Assembly (NCBI GenBank): GCA_018238155.1 | Contig: JABCTZ010000037.1 | Span: 69,256-133,255, forward strand | DNA: 64,000 nt | Origin: Candidatus Heimdallarchaeota archaeon | Lineage (GTDB): Archaea > Asgardarchaeota > Heimdallarchaeia > JABLTI01 | Direction: 5' to 3' | Shown here: piece by piece, positions 41,415 through 48,068 of the stretch | Position numbering within the stretch: position 1 is the first letter of the stretch | Layout of the letters: every line of letters begins with the position of its first letter | Notes under the pieces: generated by a model | Told to the model about the DNA's origin: nothing | The model's input: only the letters and a program-made list of their open reading frames with translations | Databases searched by the model: none | Position numbers and translations under genes: made by a program

Positions 41415-41604
41415 GTATTTGTGTTTCTTAGTTAAAATCGTTTTTATTGTTAATCTTAGTCAAATATAAAGCGATAATTTTCAATTCTCTTCACAGCAAT
41501 AATCTAAAATGTCCCAAAGCCTAAAATAGTTTAAATAGATATATATCGAAACAATTAACGTATTGTTAGTTAAAGAATTAGTAACTAGTACCAGGTGGAA
41601 CTAT

Positions 41605-43488
41605 ATGCTACCGATTTTGAAAACCTTGGAATTCTCTAAAATTATTCCCTTAAGTGAAAGATCTGTTGAAAAAATTATTTTTAAAGATGGAATCAACAAA
41701 TTCCTAGCTGAAAACGGGTCGGGTAAAACTACTCTAACGGATTTAATTGAACACTCTCTTGTAAGAGATGCTCATGCTTTTGCTTGGAATGTTTTTTCGA
41801 AAAAAAGAGTGGATCGTACTGCTTATGTTAAATCTGAATGGGTTTTTGGTTCAGAAAAGAATTCTATCACCCATGAGTTAACTGATGCGGGTGCTAGGAC
41901 ACGTGTAACTTCCTCCAAATTTTCAAATAAAGCACATACAAAAGATATGTATTCAGATTTCATTTATTCAAAAACAAACTTATCTTTGGAACAAATACAG
42001 AAACTATTCGAAGGGGTCTATTATAAACGAGAGAATGATTTGAATCTTTTAGGAACCCCTGGTAAAGAGAGTTTGATGGATTTCTTTGAGCTTTTGAATA
42101 AAGCAATTAGAATGGATACTCCAACAACAATTAAGCTTCGCAATCAAATTGGTGAAATTAAACGTCAAATCGATTTAAGGAAAAATAACAAACGCAAAAT
42201 TGAAGCTACTCTTGAAAAGATGGAAATAATTTTTGCTGGAACTGATTCTTCAGCTGATGCTTTAGATAATATTGGCTCCAGAAAAGGTGATTTAGAACGT
42301 AGCAATAATCAATTAAAAAAAGAAGGTGATAATTCACGTTTAGCATTTTCAAATATTGAAGAAGAGGATAAAGAAATTCTTAACAAGTTAGACAGTGATC
42401 AAGAAGTATTACTTAAAATTAGAACTCAGCTTGATTCCTTGAAATCCAATAGGTTTGCTTTTCAAGCAGATCTAAATAATCTCAAAAACGAACTTGATGG
42501 TTTCAAAAAGTTAGGCAATGTTGATTATTCTTCCATCAAAGAAGCTTGGGAAAAGAAAGAAAATTGTGAACTTTGCGGAAGCTCAATTTTCAACCATTGG
42601 GAAGAACGAGTCAAGGAAGGTTGTCCTTCTTGTGGAACACTTTGGAAAAATATCCCTAAAACCATTCAAGAATTAATTTCTAATGGGCGAAAAAATAACG
42701 GTAAAGAAACACGTGATATTCAAACAGAAATTGAGAAAATTGAACTGGAACTCAGAACAACTCAAGAAGATATTGAGAGATTGGAGAAAGATGAGAAAAC
42801 AAATAATGTATCAGTGAAGAATTTAAGGGAGAAATTGGCTACTAATAATTCTAGAAGAAGAAAACTTCAATCGCAAAATGATGTAATTACTCAGAAAATA
42901 CATAGAATTGGTGTTGAACTTGGTAGTTTATCTGCTCAAGAAAAAATGGTTAATCAAGATGAAAGCATCGGTTTGCTGAAAGTAAATCTTGAAAAAATCA
43001 ATACAGAATTAGAGAATTATTATACTCAATTGGATCGATATGAACATGAACTTCCTGAACAAGAAGAATTACAACAAATTCTCAACAATTTTACTCGTTC
43101 CACGAAAGAAATTTTTGGTTATAGTATGTTAGCTGATACAGATACGAGAATTATAACAATATCGAAAGATGATTCTGAAAGAGATTTCGAGGCTATGTCA
43201 TGGTCTGAAAGGTATTTCATCGATGTTGTCTTTAGAATATCTGTTTTCAATTTCCTAATAGAAAACGGTATAATGAAGAAAGGGTTCCTTGTTCTTGATT
43301 CTCCGGAAGCTGCTCTTGATCCACATAGATTAGATTTACTCGCGAATTTGATCAATAAACACAAAAATAAAATCACTTTCACAATTGCAACACGAGTAAG
43401 CAAATTCTTTAACCAATTAGAAGGAAATCCATTGGAAATCCGAAAACAAACTCAAACAAGTTTATTCGATTTCATTAGTATGAGTTAA
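41605..43488 (+). CDS. SMC/Rad50-superfamily ABC ATPase with central Cys motifs and C-terminal PIP box
   Basis: Walker A AENGSGKTT, coiled coils, CELC...CPSC, signature MSWSE, Walker B/D-loop LVLDSPEAALD, terminal QTSLFDFI. Confidence 0.85.
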   Translation: MLPILKTLEFSKIIPLSERSVEKIIFKDGINKFLAENGSGKTTLTDLIEHSLVRDAHAFAWNVFSKKRVDRTAYVKSEWVFGSEKNSITHELTDAGARTRVTSSKFSNKAHTKDMYSDFIYSKTNLSLEQIQKLFEGVYYKRENDLNLLGTPGKESLMDFFELLNKAIRMDTPTTIKLRNQIGEIKRQIDLRKNNKRKIEATLEKMEIIFAGTDSSADALDNIGSRKGDLERSNNQLKKEGDNSRLAFSNIEEEDKEILNKLDSDQEVLLKIRTQLDSLKSNRFAFQADLNNLKNELDGFKKLGNVDYSSIKEAWEKKENCELCGSSIFNHWEERVKEGCPSCGTLWKNIPKTIQELISNGRKNNGKETRDIQTEIEKIELELRTTQEDIERLEKDEKTNNVSVKNLREKLATNNSRRRKLQSQNDVITQKIHRIGVELGSLSAQEKMVNQDESIGLLKVNLEKINTELENYYTQLDRYEHELPEQEELQQILNNFTRSTKEIFGYSMLADTDTRIITISKDDSERDFEAMSWSERYFIDVVFRISVFNFLIENGIMKKGFLVLDSPEAALDPHRLDLLANLINKHKNKITFTIATRVSKFFNQLEGNPLEIRKQTQTSLFDFISMS

Positions 43489-44895: not shown

Positions 44896-44986
44896 AATAT
44901 CGTTATCATCCCAATACTTTAAAAATAAAAGTTATGCAAACTAGTTTAGAAGGATTTTTTTGTACAGAGAAGCGAAGTGTAAAGCT

Positions 44987-45574
44987 ATGAGTGATGACGA
45001 AGAAATAAAGATAAAAAATCTCTTGAGAGGAATCAAATCAATCTTAAAGAGAAGAAAATACAAAATTGCCTCCGAAGAACGTTTTGAAAATTATATTGAT
45101 ATTCAATGTGAATTAGATTCAGATAGTACTCAAGAAATTCTTACTAGAATTTCCTTAGAGGATAAAGTTGGAGTAGCAGTTTTGCGCGAATATGTTAAAA
45201 AATTAGAAGAGGTTGAGCTAGAGAAAGGAGAAGAAAATATTAAAGGATTGTTAGTCGCTTCCAATCGATTCACTCATTATGCTCGGCGCGAAGCAAAGGA
45301 AAAGAAGATTTGGATAATTACTAGCAAAGATCCGAGATTCGACATCTTTACTCATGAACTCGTACCAGAGCATGTAATTTGTCCAGATGAAGAATTAAAA
45401 GATCTATTACTCAAATATAATATTCAAAGAAGGCAATTACCTAAAATTCTCATTAGCGATCCAGCAGTCAAAGCTATTGGTGCTAAACCAGGGCAAGTTG
45501 TTAAAATTTACCGAGAAAGTGCCATTGCCAGCGAATCTATCGCTTATCGGCTTGTTGTAAGTAGAGCAAATTAG
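44987..45574 (+). CDS. rpoH: RNA polymerase subunit Rpo5/RpoH with RPB5-like N-terminal domain
   Basis: C-terminal HELVPEH...QLPKILISDP...GQVVKIYRES...YRLV, plus about 115 extra N-terminal residues. Confidence 0.92.
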   Translation: MSDDEEIKIKNLLRGIKSILKRRKYKIASEERFENYIDIQCELDSDSTQEILTRISLEDKVGVAVLREYVKKLEEVELEKGEENIKGLLVASNRFTHYARREAKEKKIWIITSKDPRFDIFTHELVPEHVICPDEELKDLLLKYNIQRRQLPKILISDPAVKAIGAKPGQVVKIYRESAIASESIAYRLVVSRAN

Positions 45575-46051: not shown

Positions 46052-46213
46052 GCTCTTCAGAATAGATTACTTTATTTACTAAAATTTTCTTTTTATTATT
46101 TTATTTTTCTCATTTTTTTAAGAATCTAATTATTAATAGAATGTGCAACAACCAAAAGCTTATGAAATATCTCAACACAGTTATGACATCCTTTGACAAT
46201 GGGTTGAAATTAG

Positions 46214-47122
46214 ATGGTAAATGAGTCACCTTTCTCCAGTAGAAATACTATTAAACTTTCAAATAACGCTCTTAAAGAATTACTTAGTCCTATATCAGAG
46301 AAAGAACTAATCAATAAAATTGCTAACATCAAGGGTTGGAAAACAAAGCGAGTACCATTTACAGCTAAGCAATCAAAAAGAGAGTATTTCTTAATGCACC
46401 TTGGTGCAAATATTTCTTTGGCAAATTTCCGCGAATTCCGTATTATTCGAGAACATTTTCAAATTTCGAAAATTAAGTGGAATGCATTCAGTTGGGATAA
46501 AAGTATAACACGATATTTTCCTGACAAACTAGAAAAGAAAATCGAAAATGTAATTCAAAATTTGACTGCAATGGTAAACTTAGACATTATATTAGTAGAT
46601 GAAGAGACAAAAACGATTTTTCTTTTATTGGAACAATGGCAAAATCAAATTGTATCAGACACCTTTCTATCAAGAGTTGAAACGAATATCCCAAAATATT
46701 TCCGTGCATATATGTGCTTGTCGAAAAAAATGCTCCTAGTTGAAAATAAATCAGAAAAAGCTACAAATGAGTTTGTTAAGATTATCGAACAAGCATTTAA
46801 TCTTACTATAGATAAGATTCGAATTAATGCAATGATTATTCGAGAGTTTGTTAAAAACAATCCTGAAAACTTAACACGATTGATTATTCGTGTTCCTCAA
46901 GAAGTAGCAGGTTTCGGAGGTTTATCTGAATTGACACTGCAAGGTTCGGATGTCATTATAGGCTCAAAGGGGTTAATGGATCGTCATGAAACCTCACCGA
47001 TAAATGTTGGACCTTGGACAGGAGTCTCAAATGCCAATATTAGCCTTGATGTAGGGAAACCCTTGAGAGCTTCCACTGTTAAGGATGCACTTCAACTTTT
47101 TGATCTTTTGAAAGAAATGTAG
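46214..47122 (+). CDS. hypothetical protein resembling kinetochore CENP-N/Chl4 (TBP-like/RdgC-like fold)
   Basis: The 302-aa ORF is clear. The family call rests on a by-eye alignment to recalled CENP-N (see findings). Confidence 0.55.
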   Translation: MVNESPFSSRNTIKLSNNALKELLSPISEKELINKIANIKGWKTKRVPFTAKQSKREYFLMHLGANISLANFREFRIIREHFQISKIKWNAFSWDKSITRYFPDKLEKKIENVIQNLTAMVNLDIILVDEETKTIFLLLEQWQNQIVSDTFLSRVETNIPKYFRAYMCLSKKMLLVENKSEKATNEFVKIIEQAFNLTIDKIRINAMIIREFVKNNPENLTRLIIRVPQEVAGFGGLSELTLQGSDVIIGSKGLMDRHETSPINVGPWTGVSNANISLDVGKPLRASTVKDALQLFDLLKEM

Positions 47123-47288
47123 AGGAAGTATTTTGTCAAAATAGAAACTTTTTTTAGTATAGTGGGAATAATTGCATCAAAAGTAGTATTATTATTTAGT
47201 AGCTACAACTTAATATATAGATAGAAAATATTTAACTATAGATAGAAACTAATCTAAAATATCTTAGTATTTAAGGTGGCAAATTAAA

Positions 47289-48068
47289 TTGAGCAACAAT
47301 CTAGATAATTTATTAAGTGATATTTATTCTTCAGAAAGTCAAAGTCAAGGCGTAAAAGAACTAGCGGTTTTAATTAATAATCTTTCAAATTTACTTCTTA
47401 AGTCGATTAGCCAATTGGAAAGCCGAGTGCTTAAACTTGAACAAAGTTCAGGAGGAGGAGTTAGTAGTCCTTTAGCTCCAGCAACAACTCCTGCACCCAA
47501 ACCAAAATCAGCATCTCCATTTAAACCGACAACTCCAGCATTGAGAACTCCACCGCCCCCTCCTAAACAAAGAGCTTCACCGGTAGCAACTCCAAGAGCT
47601 CAACCTACGGCTTCTGCAAGTGGAGCAGGACCAAGTTCAGCAGCACAAGCTGCTTCTATGCTAGGTGCAACACTTAAACCAGCACCAACGAAAACTCCAG
47701 CTGCAAGTGGAGCAGGACCTTCATTCTTAACAGGAGTTGTAAATCCAAATACAAGCCAAGCTTCACCAAGTACTGTTTCAACAACAGGAGCTACAATAGA
47801 TGCTTCAGCGCCAGTAAGTGCGGGAGGAGTTACTATAGATGCTTCAGCACCTGTAAGTGCAGGAGGAGGTATCGCTGGTCCCCGAGGAGGATTCAAAGGA
47901 GAATTAGCTGAAAAACTCGCAAGGAGAAGGGCAAAAGTTCAACAACAACTTGATGATGATTTTGATGCACCAGAAGAAGTGGAAGCTGAAGAAGAGGGTC
48001 CAAGTAGTGAACTTAAAACAGATTTGGAAGATGAACTTAGAAATGCATTTTCAAAACTACAAGGTTAA
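47289..48068 (+). CDS. proline-rich protein with WH2/GAB-like and VASP FAB-like motifs (candidate actin regulator)
   Basis: N-terminal coiled coil, PPPPP, AASMLGATLKPA, GGFKGELAEKLARRRAK, acidic tract, C-terminal amphipathic helix. Confidence 0.6.
   Translation: MSNNLDNLLSDIYSSESQSQGVKELAVLINNLSNLLLKSISQLESRVLKLEQSSGGGVSSPLAPATTPAPKPKSASPFKPTTPALRTPPPPPKQRASPVATPRAQPTASASGAGPSSAAQAASMLGATLKPAPTKTPAASGAGPSFLTGVVNPNTSQASPSTVSTTGATIDASAPVSAGGVTIDASAPVSAGGGIAGPRGGFKGELAEKLARRRAKVQQQLDDDFDAPEEVEAEEEGPSSELKTDLEDELRNAFSKLQG
47793..47867 (+). repeat. 39-nt tandem repeat encoding TIDASAPVSAGG x2
   Basis: acaatagatgcttcagcgccagtaagtgcgggagga / actatagatgcttcagcacctgtaagtgcaggagga. Differences are synonymous. 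Confidence 0.85.

Follow-up and report, generated by a model that had tools for sequence, protein, structure and literature searches.

The open reading frame (ORF) at positions 46214–47122 (+) in a 64,000-nucleotide stretch of DNA from Candidatus Heimdallarchaeota archaeon (assembly GCA_018238155.1, contig JABCTZ010000037.1, positions 69,256 to 133,255), hereafter called the window, encodes a basic protein of 302 amino acids (aa) that is probably a homodimeric, chromosome-associated, DNA-binding clamp of the RdgC/CENP-LN structural superfamily, with its domains in the order found in the kinetochore protein CENP-N. The gene is real, conserved and single-copy, and its product represents a previously undescribed protein family. 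The fold, the domain order and the self-pairing of the protein are predictions from structural models, while DNA binding is suggested by its fold relatives and its charge; a vault or ring geometry and the cellular role are likewise inferred. A preliminary description, made from the sequence alone, had proposed the protein as an archaeal homologue of CENP-N/Chl4 on the strength of sequence similarity.

The paralogues CENP-L and CENP-N consist of an LN-homology domain (LNHD) of ~130 residues and a C-terminal dimerisation domain, to which CENP-N adds a pyrin domain of ~80 residues; together, they make up a basic vault by which a single DNA duplex is gripped (bioRxiv 10.1101/2022.01.06.475204). 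In the same work, which described the structure of the human constitutive centromere-associated network (CCAN), Pesenti et al. related CENP-LN to the RdgC homodimer and proposed that it arose when a homodimeric singleton able to bind DNA was duplicated (bioRxiv 10.1101/2022.01.06.475204). A dedicated study by Tromer et al. found CENP-L and CENP-N to lack significant sequence similarity to other proteins (PMC6601020). In three recent structure-based surveys of Asgard proteins, the main texts mention neither CENP proteins nor the kinetochore nor RdgC.

AlphaFold2 prediction from a 29-sequence family alignment gave a model with a predicted local distance difference test score (pLDDT) of 83.7 and a predicted template modelling score (pTM) of 0.81, in which three domains were apparent (Table 1). 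The helical N-terminal domain (N-domain) has a conserved basic loop at residues 43–56. It is followed by a curved beta-sheet domain with a long beta-hairpin, the tip of which (residues 147–156) was modelled at low confidence, and by an alpha/beta domain at the C-terminus. The preliminary description had predicted a TBP-like middle domain, and the model indeed contains an LNHD of ~130 residues with a TBP-like curved sheet.

When the model was compared with the PDB by Foldseek, the best 27 matches were all Iml3/CENP-L, Chl4/CENP-N or RdgC chains, with E-values from 6.8e-8 to 5.4e-3, after which unrelated folds appeared. The best E-values were 7e-8 for the eukaryotic proteins and 1.5e-5 for RdgC. 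A second, independent structural comparison, carried out all-against-all over 48,161 chains and by re-alignment of the top 1000 Foldseek entries, agreed with these results. Structural search scores were 12.7 for Chl4, 12.2 for CENP-N 1–211 (193 of 207 residues with a root-mean-square deviation (rmsd) of 4.1 Å, covering model residues 12–302), up to 11.8 for CENP-L, and 11.0 for both Iml3 and RdgC. The next entry, with a score of 8.4, was a generic TBP-like domain; matches of this kind covered residues ~76–204 only and lay well below those to full-length CENP-N/L and RdgC. In the ESM Atlas, the highest template modelling (TM) scores, normalized by query, were 0.58 for a eukaryotic CENP-N cluster and 0.54 for a CENP-L cluster.

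The ranges of these alignments point to a composite layout. All CENP-N/Chl4 chains aligned from model residues 5–16 onwards and thus included the N-domain, and the rigid alignments took the N-domain and the LNHD together. CENP-L, Iml3 and RdgC aligned from model residues 77–85 (one CENP-L chain from residue 31) through to the C-terminus, their whole-chain alignments pairing CENP-L 60–338, Iml3 1–239 and RdgC 1–300 with model 77/85–302. In the rigid alignments, the C-terminal domain superposed on that of CENP-L, not that of CENP-N, while the non-rigid Foldseek alignments to full-length human CENP-N extended over 309–325 columns. Since CENP-N/Chl4 match from the N-terminal end and CENP-L/Iml3/RdgC from about residue 77 to the C-terminus, the modelled protein appears to join the layout of the N-terminal half of CENP-N (pyrin plus LNHD) to that of CENP-L and RdgC (LNHD plus dimerisation domain).

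The N-domain itself was predicted to be pyrin-like in the preliminary description. It is included in every CENP-N/Chl4 alignment but is a poor match when taken alone. Folded separately, it reached a pLDDT of 84 and gave only weak structural matches, including one of model residues 12–86 to CENP-N 1–80; the rest of the list consisted mostly of death-fold domains, and Foldseek found nothing for the isolated domain. The N-domain model is therefore compatible with a pyrin-like fold, which it does not prove, and a SAP-like fold is equally possible. Pyrin-like and SAP-like domains are both small, DNA-facing helical modules.

Two copies of the protein were predicted to pair, with an ipSAE of 0.59 compared to 0.00 for the best control. 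At least 89% of the contacts were common to three runs, and the partner pLDDT was at least 82. In calibration, 20 of 30 proteins solved as one-chain pairs attained this ipSAE mark, as did one of 23 solved as single chains. The core of the predicted interface (residues 231–255) lies on the most conserved motif of the family, in which G233, G244 and G266 are invariant in all subfamilies in two family alignments. In the predicted homodimer, the strand formed by residues 239–243 runs antiparallel to its twin on the two-fold axis, and further contacts involve residues 13–23, residues 72–76 and the hairpin tip (147–160). A role as one half of a CENP-LN-like heterodimer was not supported, as the family profile found no second member in the protein's own genome.

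None of the sequence-based methods linked the window protein to CENP-N, CENP-L or RdgC. A search of the protein against Pfam and NCBIfam with hmmscan returned no CENP-N, CENP-L or RdgC match, and neither phmmer nor the 29-sequence family profile found anything relevant among all PDB sequences. Alignment of the family profile to a mammalian CENP-N alignment by hhalign was non-significant (E = 0.55 and 0.39); the CENP-N alignment used was narrow, built from the 120 best matches listed, all of them mammalian. Pairwise comparison with human CENP-N 1–212 gave z = 1.5 (local) and 2.2 (semi-global) against shuffled sequences, which is chance level, and comparison with a full-length CENP-N orthologue gave z below 0. 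The Pfam CENP-L model (PF13092) matched nothing in the protein or in its own genome. The RdgC model (PF04381) matched nothing at E ≤ 10 in 33 family members and nothing in the own genome, while an E. coli control exceeded the cut-off.

In light of these results, the sequence similarity to CENP-N put forward in the preliminary description could not be distinguished from chance by Pfam, NCBIfam, phmmer, profile, hhalign or shuffle tests. The strings on which it was based were sound: all of the archaeal ones occur in the 302-aa translation, a 78-residue human CENP-N bait was 100% identical to a PDB chain of human CENP-N, and the later human strings were present in the mammalian consensus. The collinear register that it proposed also agrees with the structural alignments (model 12–86 with CENP-N 1–80, and 12–302 with 1–211). 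The best hhalign segment, itself non-significant, paired model 86–146 with CENP-N 80–142 in the same register as that derived from structure.

The Pfam CENP-N model (PF05238) gave no match in the protein or in a six-frame scan of its own genome. Weak matches were found elsewhere in the family. One of the 33 family members, P0057, matched with E = 0.19 (residues 260–289 with profile positions 366–395 of 410), and a six-frame scan of 400 Asgard genomes yielded two sub-threshold matches inside the family genes of genomes G305 and G304 (E = 0.031 and 0.2; profile 333–395 and 366–395). These matches scored 11–14 bits against a cut-off of 25 and apparently belong to one distant subfamily. By a rough estimate, the chance of such a match landing in a family gene in any of 108 genomes is ~2e-3. 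They place the conserved C-terminal motif on the C-terminal, CENP-L-binding part of the CENP-N profile, the region to which the preliminary description had likened it, and are no more than suggestive.

The same scans also produced candidates that were rejected. CENP-L matches in the 400 genomes were noise only, none being at a family locus. In an Asgard family that lacks the gene, stop-free ORFs of 294–313 aa matched the N-terminal part of the CENP-N profile; the five longest and one shorter were checked and judged to be chance matches, because the family hidden Markov model did not see the recovered ones (E > 0.1) and two had AbrB-like N-termini. The latter two, 296-aa ORFs at L069 1028–1918 (+) and L071 424–1314 (−) with spurious PF05238 matches at E 0.2–0.4, are a trap when Asgard genomes are scanned with this model.

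The family has no Pfam or NCBIfam model. We found 45 close homologues at 45–87% identity, most of the full-length ones having 301–306 aa. Those with names came from Heimdall-group or other Asgard assemblies, except two that carry the labels Thorarchaeota and Bathyarchaeia. When 1.84 billion cluster representatives were searched exhaustively, 32 matches were returned and ~30 distant relatives were added at 20–38% identity, the named ones being from Heimdallarchaeaceae, Hodarchaeales and Helarchaeota. With a profile built from the wide alignment, the gene was detected in 108 of 400 Asgard genomes, nearly always as a single copy. It was near-universal in the window's own class, Heimdallarchaeia (77 of 82 genomes), and was not detected with this profile in some large Asgard families (0/135, 0/19 and 0/14 genomes). 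Heimdallarchaeia is the class that holds the closest known archaeal relatives of eukaryotes. In the own genome, which is 90.7% complete, the family profile found one family gene and, at E ≤ 1, no paralogue. When one genome for each of 185,579 species was scanned with a degenerate pattern, the records returned were all from Asgard archaea. Three unannotated ESM Atlas clusters resemble the protein (TM 0.51–0.54 by query) and are labelled partly "Bacteria/Bacillota"; these labels rest on few records, and bacterial membership is neither confirmed nor excluded. As far as sampled, the sequences suggest that the family is restricted to Asgard archaea.

Among known proteins, CENP-N/Chl4 of the inner kinetochore CCAN (PF05238; PDB 6EQT, 6C0W, 6QLD_N, 7PKN_N) has the domain order predicted for the Asgard protein. 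The two differ in that there is no detectable sequence similarity, that the Asgard N-domain has four helices and matches weakly when alone, and that the Asgard C-terminal domain superposes on that of CENP-L. Moreover, CENP-N pairs with its paralogue through the C-terminal domains, whereas for the Asgard protein no gene for a CENP-L partner was found in the genome and homodimer formation is predicted. CENP-N also recognizes the CENP-A nucleosome as a member of the CCAN, and the Asgard organism is not known to offer a CENP-A, CCAN or spindle context. CENP-L/Iml3/Fta1 (PF13092; PDB 4IT3, 4JE3_A, 7XHN_L, 7PKN_L) lacks the helical N-domain, as does RdgC, the bacterial recombination-associated DNA ring (PF04381; PDB 2OWL, 2OWY). 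RdgC is bacterial, whereas the Asgard family is Asgard-restricted as far as sampled and has no PF04381 match; RdgC is also a homodimer that forms a closed ring around DNA, and for the Asgard protein a homodimer is predicted. YejK, a nucleoid-associated DNA clamp of E. coli (PDB 9BE2), gave a much weaker, partial match and differs in its C-domain and clamp architecture. Since all sequence-model tests failed and there is no paralogous partner, the protein is best described not as a CENP-N orthologue but as a new family or variant in the RdgC/CENP-LN structural superfamily. The original interpretation is partly supported: the predicted fold and domain order match CENP-N, but over the body of the protein CENP-L and RdgC match equally well, the sequence methods are silent and the predicted assembly is a homodimer.

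In the mechanism that we consider most likely, two copies would join by way of the strand and loop conserved near the C-terminus (residues 231–255), giving a two-fold symmetric vault or ring with basic inner surfaces. Together with the basic N-domains, these surfaces would grip double-stranded or histone-wrapped DNA, and the clamp might act in chromatin organization, recombination control or segregation. The high isoelectric point (pI) and the charge of the N-domain (Table 1) are consistent with such a function, and the median pI of the wider family, 9.2, is close to the 9.1 of mammalian CENP-N. Several observations weigh against this model. The TM-scores are moderate (0.37–0.47 by query), with an rmsd of 4–5 Å over ~200 residues, and all of the structural evidence comes from predicted models; resemblance to complexes of RdgC or CENP-LN that have been solved may account for part of the homodimer prediction. 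To this must be added the silence of the sequence-based methods, and that no conserved operon indicating a chromosome function was found among the loci compared.

An unlikely but serious alternative is an archaeal nucleoid or recombination protein of the RdgC type, which would form rings as a homodimer, bind DNA non-specifically and be no nearer to CENP-L/N than bacterial RdgC is, and in which the N-domain would be an independent add-on such as a SAP-like module. The preliminary description had singled out a generic RdgC- or TBP-like match with no pyrin-like N-domain as the result that would speak against it. What was found lies between: RdgC ties with CENP-N/L for the body and the N-domain matches weakly alone, as such an alternative would have it, but within the full model the N-domain aligns with CENP-N/Chl4 only, apart from one CENP-L chain aligned from residue 31. 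The rigid superposition of CENP-N/Chl4 on the N-domain and LNHD together (193 of 207 residues) would be unexpected for an unrelated add-on. The RdgC Pfam model is silent in the 33 family members and in the genome, Foldseek places the eukaryotic proteins before RdgC, and the weak CENP-N matches coincide with a single subfamily's C-terminal motif.

It is improbable that the protein merely uses a common TBP-like scaffold and has no action on DNA, serving instead as a protein-binding adaptor or as an effector or regulator of a small GTPase. The generic TBP-like matches are partial and score far below full-length CENP-N/L and RdgC, and the protein is strongly basic. A gene for a Ras-family GTPase (PF00071, E 1e-42 to 3e-56; 176–200 aa) does directly adjoin the homologue in 6 of 23 sampled loci (L054, L055, L059, L064, L067 and L012, from five GTDB families), either co-directionally upstream, once overlapping the start of the homologue, or divergently. 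Ras-like GTPases are very numerous in Asgard genomes, so some chance adjacency is expected, and in the window no GTPase gene neighbours 46214–47122.

If the protein is a DNA-binding clamp of this superfamily, its relation to the eukaryotic pair can be considered. [quoted passage not shown] The family fits the singleton proposal because it is single-copy, basic, predicted to self-pair and has the CENP-N domain order; judged by the models, it has the properties expected of the CENP-LN singleton plus a CENP-N-type N-domain. Specific CENP-L/N ancestry is plausible, though unproven. How the kinetochore arose is an unsolved question, and the Asgard family gives the singleton-duplication proposal a concrete protein. 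If correct, this would be the first inner-kinetochore component, besides histone folds, to be traced to the archaeal ancestors of eukaryotes.

Table 1. The gene, the predicted domains of its product and the flanking signals, in window coordinates.
Feature	Position	Strand	Description
Protein-coding gene, 302 aa	46214..47122	+	ORF; pI 9.46, net charge +9; conserved Asgard family
N-terminal helical domain, residues ~10–84	46241..46465	+	Predicted; four helices, two short strands, net +8; pyrin/death-fold-like or SAP-like
TBP-like / LN-homology-type curved beta-sheet domain, residues ~85–204	46466..46825	+	Predicted
C-terminal alpha/beta domain, residues ~205–302	46826..47119	+	Predicted; counterpart of the C-terminal (dimerisation) region in CENP-L/Iml3 and RdgC
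Most conserved family motif, residues 228–270	46895..47023	+	Starts PQEVAGFGGLSELT, ends VGPWTG; predicted two-fold homodimer interface
A/T-rich spacer, 162 nucleotides	46052..46213	+	Identified by eye, putative
T7 run, archaeal terminator-like	47149..47155	+	27 nucleotides past the stop codon; identified by eye, putative

The ORF runs from an ATG to a TAG codon and has exactly the coordinates originally assigned to it; the window has a G+C content of ~32%. By eye, the spacer in front of the gene shows T-runs behind the upstream ferredoxin gene and, ~45–85 nucleotides ahead of the ATG, TATA-like A/T boxes, which makes a promoter of its own probable for the gene. Given the T7 run after the stop codon, it is probably also monocistronic.

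The gene lies in a 12-kb block of conserved synteny that comprises an SMC-like ATPase gene, hemL, a two-domain RPB5-like gene, the ferredoxin gene, the gene itself, a Pro/Ala-rich gene, thiI and further genes. A chromosome–cytoskeleton operon was considered for this block and rejected, because the synteny is conserved in the window's own family alone and because another subfamily adjoins a pyruvate:ferredoxin oxidoreductase operon, where the ferredoxin match is the delta subunit. The SMC-like ATPase, named as such in the preliminary description, is a 641-aa ORF at 41563–43488 (+), which is conserved at this place in the block throughout the genus and family, with 62–90% identity. The RPB5-like gene at 44960–45574 (+) encodes a eukaryote-like, two-domain RNA polymerase subunit H/RPB5 of 204 aa, with a full C-terminal Rpb5 domain (PF01191, E 3.5e-28) and an N-terminal extension of ~120 residues with weak matches both to folds of the restriction-endonuclease type (NA-iREase1, E 1.9e-5; Mrr_cat, E 7.5e-4) and to Rpb5_N (E 0.024). 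The gene is 64–91% identical across the genus and family, and no rpoB follows it. The Pro/Ala-rich gene at 47289–48068 (+) encodes 259 aa that begin with a coiled-coil-like segment, continue through a long low-complexity stretch rich in Pro/Ala/Ser/Thr, which contains a near-exact internal repeat, and end in an acidic, helical C-terminus; in Pfam, DUF6400 alone is matched, and weakly (E 0.003). Only in the window's own family does this gene follow the one at 46214–47122, at 46–76% identity, and this family-limited pairing provides no evidence of a functional link.

Other neighbours and extensions were seen elsewhere in the family. Two of the distant relatives are longer at the C-terminus: P0068 (377 aa) has an extension matching PCI/winged-helix (PF01399, E 1.4e-4), and P0066 (339 aa) has one that matches nothing in Pfam. 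Directly upstream of the homologue, two other lineages have a small gene for a zinc-ribbon plus winged-helix protein (L051 5975–6418 (−) and L061 4381–4782 (+)). These neighbours and the PCI/winged-helix extension may be a hint of some link to DNA binding. A UPF0047 (YjbQ-like) gene takes the directly upstream place in one Asgard family (L056 4551–4970 (+) and L057 5877–6302 (−); E ~1e-36).
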